Positions 58,300 through 64,000 of a stretch of 64,000 nt of DNA are shown one piece after another. The stretch lies in the NCBI GenBank assembly GCA_963793305.1, contig CAWBZV010000005.1, forward strand, positions 256,001 through 320,000, read 5' to 3'. The translations under genes were made by a program, and so were the position numbers. Source of the DNA: an uncultured Gemmatimonadales bacterium (GTDB lineage Bacteria > Gemmatimonadota > Gemmatimonadetes > Gemmatimonadales > Gemmatimonadaceae). Position 1 is the stretch's first letter. Each line of letters opens with the position of its first letter. The notes under the pieces are model-generated. The model worked only from the letters and a program-made list of their open reading frames with translations, ran no database searches and was not told where the DNA came from.

Positions 58300-58527
58300 C
58301 TTCGTGCCGCAGGTGCTCTCACTTCGTGTCCGCAGGTGCTCCCACTTCGTGCCCGCAGGCGCTCTCACTTCGTGTCCGCAGGTGCTCCCACTTCGTGCCC
58401 GCAGGCGCTCTCACTTCGTGTCCGCAGGTGCTCCCACTTCGTGCCCGCAGGTGCTCCCACTTCGTGTCCGCAGGTGCTCCCACTTCGTGCCCGCAGGTGC
58501 TCCCACTTCGTGCCGCAGGTCCTCTCG
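58300..58527. repeat. Tandem array, 10 units of 22-23 bp (CTTCGTG[C/T]CCGCAGG[T/C]GCTC[C/T]CA)
   Basis: Directly visible head-to-tail repeats with no spacers, in the tig-clpP intergenic region. Confidence 0.95.
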
Positions 58528-58643: not shown

Positions 58644-59892
58644 TCACGCCTCGGTGACGGCGTTCCGTTCCATAAGCCACTTGAACACTTTATCCTCGGT
58701 GACGCCGCGCTCGATCTCACGAAGCCGCCCGGCTTTCTGGAGCGACGCATACACCTCAGCCACGTTCGCTTTCCGTTTCGCCGCGGTCTCGGCGATCCGA
58801 TCATCGACCTCGGCCTCGGTCGCCCCGAGTTTCTCTTTCTCAGCCACCGCATCGATGATGAGATCGCGCCTCACCTGCCGCTCGGCCATCGCATTGAACT
58901 CGGTCGTGAACCGCCCACGATCCTCCTGCGGGATCTGATATGCATTGGCATACGCGTCGACGAGCTGCGCCACCCAACTCGGCGGGACGTTCGAACGGAT
59001 TCGCGCTGGCGATCTCGTCGAGCAACTTCTGCCGCACTGCCGCATCCGCGTCGCGCGTCGCATGCTCCTCGAGATCCGTCCGCACGGTCTTTTTCAATGC
59101 GTCGAGCGAATCAAAATCCCCGACTTCCCGCGCGAACGCATCGTCGAGCGGAGGCAACACTTTGCGCTTGACGTCCTGCAAGGTCACGCGCACGGGCTTC
59201 GTCTTGTCTCTTTGGGTCTCGTCGGGGAAGTCCGAAGGCCACTTGACCGGCCGCTCGATCGTCTGACCGGGCTTGGCCTCCATGATCAGCTCTTCGATCC
59301 CGGGAATCGCCTGGCCGCCGCCGAGCACGATGCGATACTCCTTGCCTTCGGCCGGGATGGCCCCGTTGTCGTCAGCCGTCGCCAGCAGCACCGTCACGAG
59401 GTCGCCCGGCGACGGGCTCTCGTCAAGCGGCGCCCATGTGGCGCGCTGATCGCGCATCTGCTCGATCTGCTCGGTGACATCGTCGTCCCGCACCACATTC
59501 GTGGGGCGCTCGACGCGGAACCCGGCGAGCCGCGGCAGCGGCACTTCGGGCCGAACCTCCAGGTGCAACTCGAACGTCAGATCCTGACCTTCAGCGAACT
59601 TCACATCGTGCACGTGTGGCTGAGCCGCCGGCTTGAGATGCTCTTTCTCCAGCGCCTGCTTGGCCGCTTCCTGGATCAACGACTCGATCGCCTGCTGCCG
59701 GATCGCTTCCCCAAACCGCTTCCTTACCATCGCCGCCGGCGCCTTGCCGGGGCGGAACCCCGGCAGCCGCACGTTCGACGCATATCGCTGCGCCGCCGAC
59801 TCCTCGGCCACCAGCACGTCGGCGGCCGGCACCGAGACCTCCAGCAGCCGTTCGGCGCCCGTTGTTTTCTTAGCTGTTACCTGGATGTTCAT
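58644..59892 (-). CDS. tig: Trigger factor; apparent +1 frameshift near 58992
   Basis: LPGFRPGKAP ribosome-binding signature, EVRPEV, IPG.EE, LP.LDDAFA; upstream of clpP. Confidence 0.93.
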
Positions 59893-59901
59893 AGGGGAAT
59901 A

Positions 59902-60342
59902 TTAACCCCCGCCCTTGGGCCGCGCTCGCAGATGCCGCTGCTGGCCCACGGCGTATGCCTCACGGAGCCAGCTCACAAAATCGCTATCGATCTCGCCGGG
60001 TTCGGTCAGGCGGAACACATGCACATGATTCCGCGCCGAAATCGTGTCAATGCGCCGGAACCTTGGGTGCTCCAAACGCCTCGCCAGCACGACATGGCCG
60101 TCGAGCCATTTACGCCGGGGCGTCACCTGCGCAAACGACATTCTCACCTGAAACGCTATTCGGGTCTTCTCAGGGAGAACGATGACGGGGCCGATGCCTT
60201 TGACGGCGGCCACCACCGCCTCGTAAAGCGCCTTGACCCGCGGCTCGACTTTCTCGAAGTGGTGCGCCAGGTCGTGGCGCCCGCACGCATGCGACTGATT
60301 CGCATTAGCGAATCGCCGCCCACACTTGGCGCAGCGCCACAT
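59902..60342 (-). CDS. DUF5655-like protein with N-terminal zinc finger
   Basis: MW.C.KCGR.FAN.NQSH.C, KT.IAF..R..FA, H.FRL....EID. Confidence 0.75.
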   Translation of the reverse strand: MWRCAKCGRRFANANQSHACGRHDLAHHFEKVEPRVKALYEAVVAAVKGIGPVIVLPEKTRIAFQVRMSFAQVTPRRKWLDGHVVLARRLEHPRFRRIDTISARNHVHVFRLTEPGEIDSDFVSWLREAYAVGQQRHLRARPKGGG

Positions 60343-60345
60343 AGA

Positions 60346-60402
60346 TGCTCGGGGCGGGACTTGAACCCGCACGTCTTTTGGACACAGGATCCTAAGTTCT
60401 GC
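60346..60402 (-). pseudogene. 3' half of tRNA-Leu(TAG); probable att junction of an integrated element
   Basis: Minus strand: CAGAA-CTTAGGA-TCCTG anticodon arm (one mismatch), long variable arm, GCGGG-TTCAAGT-CCCGC T-arm, CCCGAGC-A acceptor 3' strand; no D-arm or correctly spaced 5' acceptor strand upstream. Confidence 0.85.
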
Positions 60403-60913
60403 CCAGTCGCAGCGAGCGGTCCCGCCCCCCTCTAAAGATAGAAGCAAGAAACGGCACGACGAACCAACGAACGGCAGGGTCGCGGTCACAGTTCTGATCA
60501 CAGCGCGACCCGTTGGAAAGTCCCGCGCACATCGCGATACCGAGGGCCACGCGGTAGGTCGTGAGACGGCGCGAACGCTCGCCCCGCCCTTACCCGTTAA
60601 GGTACAACCGGGGCCCGCCAGGGCGCCGGCTAGGCCGGCATCAGCCGGCCGTGGCGCTGTTGATCGTCTGGAGCGCGTCGCGGGCAATCGCGGTCATACG
60701 GAGCGCCTGGACGGCATCCTCGCCCGCGCGCTCACAGGAATCGCGCGTCGCACCGCCCAGCGCGGCGACCTGGGCCGCGCCCGTCTGCTGCGCGCCGTTG
60801 CCGGCGACACTGTGCCACACGCCCGCCGCGCCGAGTGGCGGCCGTGACGGCGATTGTGCCGGACCGCAATGCGCCCTCTACTAGCTGGCGCGCAGCGCGC
60901 GGGCGTAAGCGCG

Positions 60914-60924
60914 CTTCTCGATAC
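60914..60924 (+). other. Candidate double-strand origin nick site (CTCGATA)
   Basis: One mismatch to the pC194/phiX174-type CTTGATA; about 50 bp upstream of rep, same strand, preceded by GC-rich palindromic sequence. Confidence 0.5.
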
Positions 60925-60975
60925 GTTAGCACATCTCGTCACGACCGGCGCAAATCGAGACCCGACCGGCTCGTC

Positions 60976-61885
60976 ATGGCGGCCCGCGCCAAAGGATTGA
61001 CATACGCGATGGCCACGCGGCTCATGATGCTCAAGAGCCCACTCTGGCGGTCATATCGCAACACGCTGTTCTGCACGGACTGCATCACGTCGACTCCAGA
61101 GGGCGGACGGGCGAAACGTTGCGGCAATCAGATGGTGCATGGTGTGCGGCCGCATCCGCGCGGGCAAGGCGTTCCGGCGGTACTACCCCATCGTCAGCCG
61201 ATGGCGCGATGCCCAACACGTCATCCTGACGATCCCCAACGTCGCGCGGCTCGCGCTCGCCGGCGCCATCGACGCAATGTTCGTGGCAACGTCACACGTC
61301 ACGCGCACGATGCTACGTGTTCACGGTGTCCGCCTCGAGGCGCTGCGTAAGCTCGAGAACACTCACAACCCGGCGCCCCTCGACGGCGTGCGCGAAATGC
61401 ACCCGCACTTCCATTTCGTGGTCAAGACAGCGCGCATGGCCACGCTGATGGTGGACCTTTGGCTAGCGGCGTTCCCCGACGCGGTGCGTTGCGCGCAGAA
61501 GATCGTCCCTGCCGACGCGACCGTGGTCCACGAGCTTTTCAAGTATTTCACCAAGCTGGTGGCCAAGCGCGGGCATGCTGACGGATCGACGGCGACAGAG
61601 TTAGCCGATCCCGATGCGCTCGACATCATGTTCCGCGCAATGCGGCGCCGCCGCGTTTTTCAGCCGATCGGGTTCAAGGGGCTCGCGGTGGATGAAGAGG
61701 AGCCAATCCCTGACGATGAGATCGAGGCCGGCATCCGCACGCGCCTCGGCGAGCCCGGCACCGCGTGGTATTGGTCGCAAGATCGGCTCGACTGGTTGAA
61801 CGCGGCGGGCGTCGCGCTCGCCGGCCACGACCCGGGTAATCGGTTCCGTGAACTGGTCGAGGGCTACGGTCGCGGGCCGCCGTAA
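60976..61885 (+). CDS. rep: Rolling-circle replication initiator, Rep_1 (pC194-like) HUH endonuclease; apparent +1 frameshift near 61129
   Basis: Cys cluster (C...CGNRWCMVC after correction), motif 1 VILTIPN, motif 2 HPHFH, motif 3 ELFKYFTK. Confidence 0.85.
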
Positions 61886-61955
61886 GGGGCCACGGTTCCC
61901 GGCAAAATCCATCCGAAATTCCGCGCGAAATCCTGGGGGCCGAGGGCCGACACCC

Positions 61956-62062
61956 CGGAGACCGAGCACGAGACCGAGCGTGAAACCGAGCGTGAATCTG
62001 AGCCGGAATCTGAGCCGGAATCTGAGCGGAACCCGAACCGGAACCCGAACCGGAACCCGAGC
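61956..62062. repeat. Nine degenerate 12-bp tandem repeats
   Basis: cggagaccgagc/acgagaccgagc/gtgaaaccgagc/gtgaatctgagc/cggaatctgagc x2/ggaacccgaac/cggaacccgaac/cggaacccgagc. Confidence 0.85.
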
Positions 62063-62088
62063 GCCCCCTGTTCCGCGCGATTCCCTCG

Positions 62089-62262
62089 CTACTTCCGCTT
62101 CGGCTCGTCGGCCCGTCGATCGGCTTCGCGCAGCAGAACCAAGCGCGCCCACGAGCTCATGTCGCGATGGTCGACCCATGCGGCGTGCTCTATGCGCTTC
62201 TTCTCTGCCAGGCTCAGCCGTATCACGAACCGCTGATCGCGCGTCTCAGGCGTCTTAGGCAT
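62089..62262 (-). CDS. Ribbon-helix-helix-like DNA-binding protein (MobC/CopG/TacA-like)
   Basis: RDQRFVIRLS.AEK..IE.AA......MS.WAR..LL. Confidence 0.7.
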   Translation of the reverse strand: MPKTPETRDQRFVIRLSLAEKKRIEHAAWVDHRDMSSWARLVLLREADRRADEPKRK

Positions 62263-62385
62263 ACGAGGGCAACATAGGTACAATGGGGCGCCTTGTCTGT
62301 TTGCCTATGGGACATCTTAGGCGTCTTGTTGCACTCTGAGGCACACATCGCCTACATTCTCCGCCGACCTCACAACGGAGAGAAC

Positions 62386-62601
62386 ATGCACATGTCGAAC
62401 GTTGCGGCTCCCTGGTGGCTCGGCACCGCTATGGACGCGGTCATGTGCGGTGTCCTGATCTGGTCGATCATCACGCTGACGAAGCGGGCCAAGCGTACCA
62501 TGGACGAAGCGGACAAGGCCTTCGGCGGCATGGGTCGCGACATCGACCGCATACGCCGCGACCTCGGCGATGACGACGAGCCGTGGCAGCGGGAGAGTTG
62601 A
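62386..62601 (+). CDS. Small single-TM hypothetical protein
   Basis: SD GGAG; hydrophobic segment followed by KRAKR and an acidic tail. Confidence 0.6.
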   Translation: MHMSNVAAPWWLGTAMDAVMCGVLIWSIITLTKRAKRTMDEADKAFGGMGRDIDRIRRDLGDDDEPWQRES

Positions 62602-62813
62602 CCAGCGTGGCCCCCGACGGCCGACGCCTAGCACCGCGAGACATTGACCGTCTGTTCGCTCTGTGCGATGCACTGACGGACTCGCTCATCTTCAAGTCGT
62701 GGCCGCCGACGCGCCGGGTATCCGTGCGGAGACTTTGGCGTCTCCATACGCAAGGGCGCCGATTGGCCGAGTACACGGCAGCGCTCATTGCACGACTCGA
62801 TCGGCGCCAATGA
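62598..62813 (+). CDS. Small hypothetical protein
   Basis: TTGA and ATGA overlaps with both neighbours. Confidence 0.5.
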   Translation: MTSVAPDGRRLAPRDIDRLFALCDALTDSLIFKSWPPTRRVSVRRLWRLHTQGRRLAEYTAALIARLDRRQ

Positions 62814-63079
62814 TCGAGCCGGCTCCCGTCGTGGGCGTGATCGGGATCGTTATACGGCGCCTCCGAAAGCGCGCGGGTATATCGCAAGAACGCCTCGCTG
62901 CCGAGTCCGGAATCGACCGGAGTTACGTCGGGCGGGTCGAGCGGCACGGGGCGAGCGTCGGCATCGCGACCATGGACGCGTTACTCACCACGATCCGCGT
63001 ATCGTGGGCCGAGTTCGGCGCCGTCCTCGACGCCGAGCTAGCCTGTGCCGCGCGCGACAAAGACCGGGGGACGCGATGA
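62810..63079 (+). CDS. XRE-family HTH regulator (copy 1)
   Basis: IRRLRKRAGISQERLAAESGIDRSYVGRVER. Confidence 0.88.
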   Translation: MIEPAPVVGVIGIVIRRLRKRAGISQERLAAESGIDRSYVGRVERHGASVGIATMDALLTTIRVSWAEFGAVLDAELACAARDKDRGTR

Positions 63080-63354
63080 TCCGGCGCTACACGGCCGAGA
63101 CATCCGTGATGGTCGCGGAGATTCTAAAGCGCCATCGTCGCCGGATGAATGTCTCGCAAGAGCGCTTGGCGCACATGGCCGACGTTGACCGCACGTATGT
63201 GGGCAAGGTCGAACGTGGCATCTTGAATCCAACACTTGCTAGGTTCGACCGGTTGTTGGGTGCAATGGGCGTCACGTGGAAGGACTTCGGCGAAAGCCTC
63301 GATACGGAACTGGCCAAGCAGTTGGCAGGGTCGCCGCCGCACCCGCGCTCCTAG
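63076..63354 (+). CDS. XRE-family HTH regulator (copy 2)
   Basis: RRRMNVSQERLAHMADVDRTYVGKVERGILNPTL. Confidence 0.88.
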   Translation: MIRRYTAETSVMVAEILKRHRRRMNVSQERLAHMADVDRTYVGKVERGILNPTLARFDRLLGAMGVTWKDFGESLDTELAKQLAGSPPHPRS

Positions 63355-63480
63355 CCGCTTTATGCGCCCACCCAGGGGCGGCCGCGCGCCAGCTACGCGG
63401 CGGCCCATTGAACATCGGCGTTATGGATGTTATTCGTCCAGTGGTTCCATAAACCACTAACCACAAACCCACGAGGTGAA

Positions 63481-63777
63481 ATGGCGTACTGGCAACCGCA
63501 GAACGGCGTGTTCAAGGATAGAGCGGGGAACTACCACATCCGCCTGTACGCGCGCGACAAGTGGGGGATCGAGTGGCGTGCGGAGGTTCCGCTTCAAGGA
63601 CGTGTGCCGGCTGCGGTGGCCGCCCGAGTGCTAGGGGTCAGTCCACAGACGATCAGCAACTGGATCGCGTCCGGAGGTTTTTCGACGGCGGCCCGAATTG
63701 TAGGGAACGCGCGCACCGTAGCGGTGCGGGACATTGTCGCTCTAGCTGTCAAAAATGGGTGGGTACAGCCCGAGTAG
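63481..63777 (+). CDS. Excisionase/MerR-like HTH DNA-binding protein
   Basis: SD GAGGTG; AARVLGVSPQTISNWIASG. Confidence 0.7.
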   Translation: MAYWQPQNGVFKDRAGNYHIRLYARDKWGIEWRAEVPLQGRVPAAVAARVLGVSPQTISNWIASGGFSTAARIVGNARTVAVRDIVALAVKNGWVQPE

Positions 63778-63809
63778 AGATCGTTTGCAAACCACTTAGG
63801 GAGGAGAAC

Positions 63810-63962
63810 ATGTCGCCGACAAAACGGGAATTAGAGGACCGGGTCGATGAATTGGAGTCGCTTGTAGAGGATCTCACGGAGCGCGGGCGCCAGGCCCTCG
63901 GCTACGATAACGCCGAGGATGCAAGCGAATCCGATCAGGATTCGTCCGAGGACGACGAGTGA
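63810..63962 (+). CDS. Small acidic coiled-coil protein
   Basis: SD GGAGGAG; TKRELEDRVDELESLVEDL heptads; acidic tail. Confidence 0.6.
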   Translation: MSPTKRELEDRVDELESLVEDLTERGRQALGYDNAEDASESDQDSSEDDE

Positions 63963-64000
63963 ACGGCACGAAACGCAGACCGCCCGCACGATCGGACTAG

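Follow-up and report, generated by a model that had tools for sequence, protein, structure and literature searches.

The right end of the window, the 64,000-nucleotide stretch of an uncultured Gemmatimonadales genome analysed here (G000:C5:256001-320000), holds most of a mobile element integrated at a tRNA-Leu(TAG) gene. Handles with G, L and C denote genomes, loci and contigs, respectively; G000 is the genome carrying the element, and L001 positions, used beyond the window, equal window positions minus 59000. Measured from start to start of its two attachment (att) copies, the element is complete and spans 5,186 bp, the last 1.6 kb of which lie beyond the window. It encodes a tyrosine integrase (Int), an excisionase (Xis) and a Rep_1 initiator, carries a nick site conserved in its family, and has no recognisable virion or conjugation gene. 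We propose that it is, quite probably, a non-autonomous integrative rolling-circle replicon, that is, an integrative plasmid or an island similar to the integrative mobilizable elements (IMEs). This fits the rolling-circle integrative plasmid named as one option in the preliminary description of this DNA. It is a genuine element of a kind already known, here in a phylum that has been poorly mapped. Its order is attL, nick site, Rep_1 gene (rep), ribbon-helix-helix (RHH) gene, two orphan open reading frames (ORFs), two XRE genes, a helix-turn-helix (HTH) gene, an acidic 50-aa peptide gene, xis, int and the intact tRNA gene.

The attL site (60345..60402, minus strand) is the 3′ half of tRNA-Leu(TAG), the original host half displaced by the insertion, and aligns along 58 bp with the intact tRNA-Leu(TAG) at G000:C5 c[321532-321613], at 91% identity (E 1e-15). 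This tRNA half had been noticed before, and the intact minus-strand gene then predicted further along does exist at a spacing of 5,186 bp. It begins 1.5 kb beyond the window end (L001:6532-6613), and attR (L001:6531-6587) lies within it, its 3′ half being supplied by the element. Identity between attL and attR begins at the anticodon loop, which is the likely crossover point of the integrase. From that loop onward attL shows no difference in 52 positions from the empty site of G001 and five from that of G005, while the restored half differs from G001 at 4 of 52 positions and from G005 at 1 of 51. Since attL equals the G001 empty site and attR is close to G005, the insertion displaced the host half and put in its place one carried on the element, apparently from a G005-like lineage.

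The empty locus predicted for related genomes was also found. All eight published relatives counted have a single tRNA copy and no element protein at the locus (nine loci were read; L030, from G012, was left out of the count and agrees with it), and the flanks join directly in G001 and G005. Direct att repeats, a restored intact target and an empty site in relatives, the three marks of an integrative element, are all present, and the insertion is a site-specific recombination into tRNA-Leu(TAG); the arrival was probably horizontal. The GC content of the element is 0.647 vs 0.649 for the host. Putative integrase arm-type sites, each with two 8-bp direct repeats 12 bp apart, lie at 60481..60506 (plus strand) and inside the other end, beyond the window (L001:6444-6469). 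The two copies are identical at 23 of 26 nt (E 7e-6), and similar paired repeats occur at equivalent positions in L033, L166 and L057.

In the assembled contigs of 4 of the 12 listed runs, one contig of run X1, possibly the source sample of the assembly, bridges attL without difference (L001 500-1924). Among these contigs none listed contains an attP-type joint or spans the element or either of the two rep breaks described below. Contig depth is 2-4.5 in the interior vs 8.6 and 10.6 in the flanks, per-contig values of patchy cover that are uninformative on copy number. Two joints in run X4 that skip the element have sides of 20-21 letters and are probably from other organisms.

The element has its own integrase and directionality factor. 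The predicted tyrosine integrase stands just beyond the window (L001:5357-6442, plus strand); it is an uninterrupted protein of 361 aa that matches PF00589 above the cut-off (31.9 bits) and phrog_1 (E 2e-27), and its structure model matches XerA, Tn1549 Int and lambda Int. K242, R305, H328 and Y338 are invariant in the eight aligned integrases. Box I of tyrosine recombinases normally holds the first catalytic Arg; in this clade that position is Glu (seven) or Asp (one), with Arg in none of the eight, and R246 and R248, after the catalytic Lys, are invariant in all of them. Possibly, this integrase clade has a rearranged active site. The same clade occurs on a canonical IME of G000 (C2:869.5-891 kb, L174-L175), a tRNA-Met element with a 41% identical integrase, a MOBP relaxase and VirD4. 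The xis-like HTH_17 gene (93 aa, L001:5076-5357, plus strand) has weaker profile matches (Pfam E 1e-3; phrog_66 E 0.03). An Xis-like HTH gene had been reported inside the window; an HTH_17-like gene is indeed there (E 7e-6) and is a different gene from the Xis beside the integrase.

The rep core (frame 2, 61130..61885, plus strand) encodes a Rep_1 HUH initiator with motifs 1-3, one Tyr in motif 3 and a Cys cluster; VILTIPN, HPHFH, ELFKYFTK and the Cys cluster are all present, as first described. The core has 43% identity to P0004, a full-length relative, over 256 aa. The profile search suggested earlier for Rep did match Pfam Rep_1 (E 1.3e-5) with a score of 25.2 bits, below the cut-off of 33.2; PF01446 is carried by all 119 other relatives among the best 120 of 242 matches, query included. 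Twenty-one columns, including H91, H93, Y139 and K142, are invariant over 81 Rep sequences and all are kept here. The protein has the HUH and single-Tyr motifs of the pC194 family, its Pfam score being below gathering, and its closest genome-borne relatives are in records titled Gemmatimonadales or Gemmatimonadota; these loci also turn up among genomes of the order to which G000 belongs. The structure model of the core (pLDDT 87) has no PDB match by Foldseek at E 0.001, and no PDB sequence relative was found. VIA-align gave generic ferredoxin-like folds at best (Z 7.6), with parvovirus NS1 nucleases at Z 6.2-6.3. The best BFVD match is unnamed (E 2.5e-12) and the named ones are Microvirus replication initiators (E 9e-5).

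The putative double-strand origin (60917..60935, plus strand) consists of a pC194-type nick heptamer, with the variant C at position 3, and conserved downstream bases. CTTGAT is the nicking site of the pC194 family (PMC2440964), and the one-change variant of the heptamer at 60917 is also found in three other loci. Among 84 homologous loci, 77 have the nick motif 49-229 nt upstream of the Rep core, against a background of 0.09 per 260 nt, and one of them holds a second copy at 16 nt; the extended motif is expected 0.0035 times per shuffled element. The motif shares the frame of rep in 71 of 73 loci, where this frame is also open, compared with 10 and 2 loci for the other two frames; the origin is therefore probably located inside the 5′ end of rep. 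Folding around the nick site gave no hairpin signal (z 0.49). The earlier view of this region, as the left end of an element that integrates at a tRNA gene and has a pC194-type HUH Rep, is borne out.

The element belongs to a family. A profile of the G000-type Rep matches 7 of 401 genomes of the phylum, G000 included; among the other six, the Rep is near a tRNA att half in G029, G104, G188, G219 and G404, and in G388 it lies where a contig ends, lined up with Int and a tRNA. Rep_1 and an integrase stand between tRNA repeats in seven other complete elements of 6-10 kb. Five are at tRNA-Met: L033 (6.4 kb), L066 (7.8 kb) and L059 (10.2 kb), L057 (10.1 kb), with only a Rep remnant, and L167 (10.2 kb), with a second Rep_1 subtype. 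The second subtype is also found in L162 (7.8 kb), at tRNA-Leu(TAA), and L055 (8.3 kb), at tRNA-Ile, has an integrase of another clade and a frameshifted Rep. In six complete relatives at three target tRNAs, rep and origin lie within about 1 kb of attL and point to Int. The second subtype has its own motif, 301-303 nt into the stretch beside attL. Because two Rep_1 subtypes, each with its own conserved upstream motif, occupy the same slot, this slot appears to be kept rather than the product of a single accident.

At the right end, the cassette of HTH gene, acidic peptide gene, xis and int is complete in G000, L033, L059, L066, L162, L163, L166 and L173, with the HTH homologues of these seven loci in the same slot; in L057 and L167 it lacks the HTH gene and the acidic peptide. 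Homologues of the acidic peptide are found in eight other loci (nine with G000). Between the two ends, the relatives carry cargo: in 29 long ORFs scanned there are EcoRI-like, XamI, MmeI, Eco57I, GmrSD, MT-A70 and other methylase matches, an OLD-TOPRIM ATPase with UvrD, Mrr, AbiJ-N, a STAND NTPase, a subtilase and a permease, and no virion or transfer gene. The OLD-TOPRIM ATPase and UvrD pair is presumably Gabija-like. The central part is thus a slot for cargo, which in the relatives is mostly restriction-modification (RM) and other defence genes and here small orphans.

Rep relatives in metagenomes numbered 310, of which the best 80 were kept. Of the 73 best metagenome loci with a sister Rep, 31 are circular contigs of 1.6-6.0 kb. 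The integrase cassette is absent from all of these circles and is found in 1 of the 73 loci (L066). The integrated Reps are interspersed with those of high-GC circles in a quick tree, whose weak forks do not show a single clade. A genome scan with Pfam Rep_1 gave 12 of 401 genomes, missing G000 itself, and five of these are loci already known. In the others, the G245 rep is bounded by tRNA-Pro repeats with a recombinase beside it; tRNA, Int and rep are adjacent in G214; a tRNA-Met half lies 2.2 kb from rep in G388:C4; the G020 and G035 loci reach the ends of their contigs; the G376 match is apparently spurious; and in G160 neither a tRNA nor Int was seen within 19 kb. The literature covered, which leaves out subscription papers and bioRxiv supplements, gave no description of this family.

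Additional loci carry related genes. The L044-L046 loci are IMG/VR viral contigs of 14-15 kb with a Rep of the same Rep_1 clade; the nick motif is present in two of the three, L044 has an endolysin, and the contigs share unannotated genes, with no PHROG capsid match in the 12 ORFs scanned. They are possibly non-tailed phages. The 3.4-kb contig L037 carries a 1.66-kb Rep unit twice in tandem, the copies having diverged (75%), and more than one Rep match also occurs in L065, L104, L107 and L124. The profile of the HTH gene matches 24 of 401 phylum genomes, including G000 and the unpublished G199, a genome used for this tally alone. Loci L205-L219 represent a second class of tRNA islands, of 7-16 kb, which combine this HTH gene with Xis, a MerR-HTH protein (about 290 aa) and an integrase of another clade. 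Their cargo includes a cyclic oligonucleotide-based antiphage signalling system (CBASS; L207), an Argonaute with a restriction endonuclease (L211) and type I or ISP RM (L209, L210).

The remaining genes of the G000 element are small. Short 12-bp tandem repeats (61961..62062) separate rep from the gene of the RHH (Arc/NikA-like) regulator (62089..62283, minus strand), which is divergent from the rightward operon, matches the Arc-like phrog_3431 (E 7e-5) and is 47% identical to a NikA-like gene at G000:C5:616.2 kb. The sigma70-like site at 62256-62284 (plus strand) is a weak call, since the promoter scan found one site vs 0.8 expected. On the plus strand, orf71 (62386..62601) is an orphan with one weakly hydrophobic segment (maximum Kyte-Doolittle 1.68); a homologue search returned only orf71 itself, other family members do not have it, and its best Atlas neighbour, at 0.82 and so below 0.9, is only a lead. 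The orphan orf76 (62583..62813, plus strand) has no match in Pfam, PHROGs or NCBIfam, was not chosen by the codon model and is perhaps no gene at all. A tandem pair of XRE (HTH_3) regulators follows on the same strand (62810-63079 and 63076-63354; Pfam E 1e-10 and 4e-10); this pair and the RHH-like gene agree with the preliminary description.

Two family-conserved genes close the part inside the window, both on the plus strand. The first encodes a 98-aa HTH_17/AlpA-like protein (63481..63777) with a match just below the HTH_17 cut-off. The second, orf50 (63810..63962), encodes the 50-aa coiled-coil peptide with an acidic tail and a net charge of -14; it has no family match and no Atlas match at 0.9, its best neighbours there being phage hypotheticals at 0.78, again only a lead. 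A spacer (63963..64000, plus strand) reaches the window edge, beyond which the element continues. Shine-Dalgarno (SD) sequences had been described as clear on several element genes; SD-like sequences do precede orf71, the HTH gene, orf50 and xis. The Rfam scan gave no family other than tRNA, terminators are not in excess (4 vs 3.6), and the folding of 60420-60860 is nothing special (z -1.3). No Zot, coat, capsid, terminase, relaxase or coupling protein was found in the 11 ORFs searched against Pfam and PHROGs, 10 of them also against NCBIfam. The sole relaxase-named matches are weak MobT hits, far below the cut-off, to the HTH part of both XRE genes. The broad IME definition, as given in the available text of PMC5704250, requires neither a canonical relaxase nor TcpA, both of which are absent from the 11 ORFs.

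From what is known of these protein families, the life cycle would be as follows. The Int would cross over in the anticodon loop via the paired arm sites and, on induction, Int and Xis would excise a 5.19-kb circle. Rep would then nick the origin, and the circle would be copied by rolling circle through a single-stranded DNA (ssDNA) intermediate, which would keep the excised form from loss; the RHH, XRE and HTH genes would set the switch. Horizontal spread would need a helper. On the best reading, the element would hitch-hike in the manner of IMEs with Rep-type relaxases or of pSAM2 without Tra.

Three transfer routes can be considered. The leading one, which we rate slightly below an even chance, is that Rep doubles as relaxase for a co-resident conjugation system; Rep_1 proteins are relaxases for plasmids mobilised by ICEBs1 (PMC5704250, PMC5357655). 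A possible helper in the genome is the set of TrbB/C/E, VirB8/9 and TrbI genes at C3:776-784 kb, part of a P-type mating system, with two VirD4 genes. The genome also has MOBP elements at tRNA-Met and tRNA-Pro, and no oriT-like stretch longer than 14 bp is shared with them. The mating-pair cluster of the C3 locus (L225) stands apart and is of Trb type, and no relaxase was seen close to it; C5:615-629.5 kb (L227), at tRNA-Pro, has MOBP/NikA elements in tandem and a short gene with an FtsK domain. The second route, to which we give about one chance in three, is phage transduction or passive packaging; a jumbo phage is reported to move tyrosine-integrase defence islands without transfer genes (PMC12595487). 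Some other route takes the smaller remaining share.

Several observations weigh against the proposed integrative replicon. Excision and replication are predictions from the gene families. In the available texts, the published Rep-type relaxases work with TcpA coupling proteins and not with VirD4 (PMC5704250), and the Rep-as-relaxase route is known only with TcpA in Firmicutes in the literature consulted (PMC5704250, PMC5357655). There is no TcpA in the element, and the genome has a single extra FtsK-domain gene, at C5:618.8 kb. No defence gene is recognised in the G000 copy. The HTH gene is also present in 20 further loci, islands of which many are tRNA-bound, and no Rep was found in any of the 20 when read. 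Rep is broken or missing in L055, L056 (a 1.9-kb relic), L057, L058 and L166 (without Rep), so that Rep is dispensable after integration.

The G000 rep itself adds to these points. Its nick motif is out of the rep frame, one of the two exceptions among the 73 loci, and we therefore count two breaks, where a single one had been implied: a net -1 between the nick site and 60976 and a +1 at about 61132. The N-terminal part between them (frame 1, 60976..61131, plus strand; 42% identity to P0004 residues 80-129) is out of frame both with the upstream nick-site codons and with the downstream core. The +1 break fits the error mode of the assembly: across 96 kb of genes that are intact in G001, all 12 frameshifts are +1, and the chance of one per rep-sized gene is about 12%. 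The -1 break is outside this mode (0/12; 4/31 non-triplet indel clusters overall). Assembly error can account for one break; it does not easily account for both, unless 60976 is now the start of translation. The G000 Rep also has the longest branch of the quick tree (1.78), its placement being unsure, and this points to decay or fast change, whereas the GC content at third codon positions of 0.82 and the stop-free core point the opposite way. Whether the rep is truly broken is in our view an even bet, and this copy of the element may be decaying.

Among the alternatives, the best placed is a dedicated phage satellite, of the type of phage-inducible chromosomal islands (PICI), of PICMI or TLC-like, in which the HTH gene and the acidic peptide would detect or exploit a helper phage, and this phage would package the circle as it replicates. 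The size, the Int-Xis-HTH core and the defence cargo resemble satellites (PMC11389934, PMC12595487), the acidic peptide is conserved in nine loci with its phage hypotheticals as lead neighbours, and the same Rep is on the three IMG/VR contigs. On the other hand, there is no terminase, capsid-size, primase or packaging gene in the 11 ORFs here or in the 29 long ORFs of relatives, and no portal, TerL or Zot match genome-wide (four models: Zot, portal and two TerL; genome 92% complete), which leaves this alternative improbable.

Even less probable is a chance cointegrate or relic, in which a small free rolling-circle plasmid recombined into an ordinary integrase island that its Rep never served. 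The two breaks and long branch of the G000 rep, the broken or absent Reps of five relatives and the mixing of integrated Reps in the tree, whose forks are open, are compatible with it; the position of rep and origin beside attL, facing Int, in the six complete relatives, the two Rep subtypes in that slot and the uninterrupted Rep frames of L033, L059 and L066 argue against it. An inovirus-like or other ssDNA prophage, the other option raised in the preliminary description, is very unlikely: Inovirus Reps spread over several plasmid Rep clusters (PMC6668415), six records named Inovirus match a homologue at 27-33% identity and orf71 is small and weakly hydrophobic, but the element closes at 5.19 kb with both ends found and all ORFs accounted for, has no pI/Zot ATPase, coat, jelly-roll or capsid-sized unassigned ORF in Pfam or PHROGs searches, orf71 is an orphan, and the relatives hold defence genes in that space. 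The prophage reading fails: no virion gene was found in the 11 ORFs scanned, and the four models for Zot, portal and TerL gave no match in the genome (92% complete). An actinomycete integrative and conjugative element (AICE) of the pSAM2 type was also considered and rejected, as there is no FtsK/SpoIIIE Tra in the element, and the PF01580 matches of the genome lie elsewhere.

Returning to the integrative replicon, a bolder combination would make it the founding member of an undescribed Gemmatimonadota family of defence islands that repeatedly recruits Rep_1 from free plasmids, with Rep acting as relaxase via the VirD4-type system of a Gram-negative host and the acidic peptide as an establishment factor (DNA mimic or helper-hijacking). 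Taken jointly, these claims are unlikely all to hold.

Some features of the neighbourhood concern the host. A +1 indel splits the tig gene (58644-59892), and degP, also next to the element, has a +1 frameshift as well. Compared with G001, a +1 frameshift occurs about every 7 kb of coding sequence in the assembly, and split genes in G000 are suspect for this reason. A 23-bp tandem repeat with 9.9 copies (58300-58524) lies between clpP and tig. The DUF5655 gene beside attL (59905-60342) is host-side, and G001 has only deleted remnants of it (L023:13161-13324).

Gemmatimonadota are abundant, up to 10% of community diversity (PMC11271474), and this family is a defined vehicle for their defence genes: RM, the OLD-nuclease and UvrD pair, and AbiJ-like genes. 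The kind of element is already known, and the G000 copy is small, possibly decaying and without defence cargo. The native integrase-att pair and the small replicon could become genetic tools, and the family offers a well-defined system in which to ask if Rep_1 is able to mobilise an element that is integrated.

Compared with known systems, the element is like the streptococcal IMEs with rolling-circle-initiator-type relaxases (MobT/Rep_trans, Rep_2, PHA00330, Viral_Rep; PMC5357655, PMC5704250) in being small and site-specific, with a tyrosine integrase and Xis, and in having the initiator as its only DNA-processing gene; 35 of 118 IMEs with such relaxases are described without a coupling protein (PMC5357655, PMC5704250). 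Unlike them, it has a Rep_1/PF01446 protein, outside the nine IME relaxase superfamilies listed in the available text of PMC5357655, and its rep is at the far end from xis-int with cargo between, whereas theirs form a compact rel-xis-int run. It also has no TcpA and comes from a different phylum. With the I55 defence islands (PMC12595487) and PICMI (PMC11389934) it shares Int, an AlpA-like HTH protein, defence cargo in the family and no autonomous transfer genes; no helper phage is known here, and a rolling-circle Rep is not mentioned for I55 (no whole-word match to 'rolling' or 'Rep' in the available text of PMC12595487). The pSAM2-type actinomycete elements share the tRNA target, Int and Xis, a pC194-family rolling-circle replicon by motifs and the nick site (PMC2440964, PMC3218068), but have the AICE-defining FtsK/SpoIIIE Tra, absent here, RepSA instead of Rep_1, and twice the size. 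The replicon itself is closest in kind to the small plasmids of the pC194/pUB110 family, with Rep_1, one catalytic Tyr and a CTTGAT-type nick site; this group includes 5.6-kb Bacteroides plasmids, with a Rep of 27-30% identity, and the free circles of 1.6-6 kb. Unlike those plasmids, this element is integrated and bears an integrase, and the nick site of its Rep clade is in frame within the 5′ end of rep.

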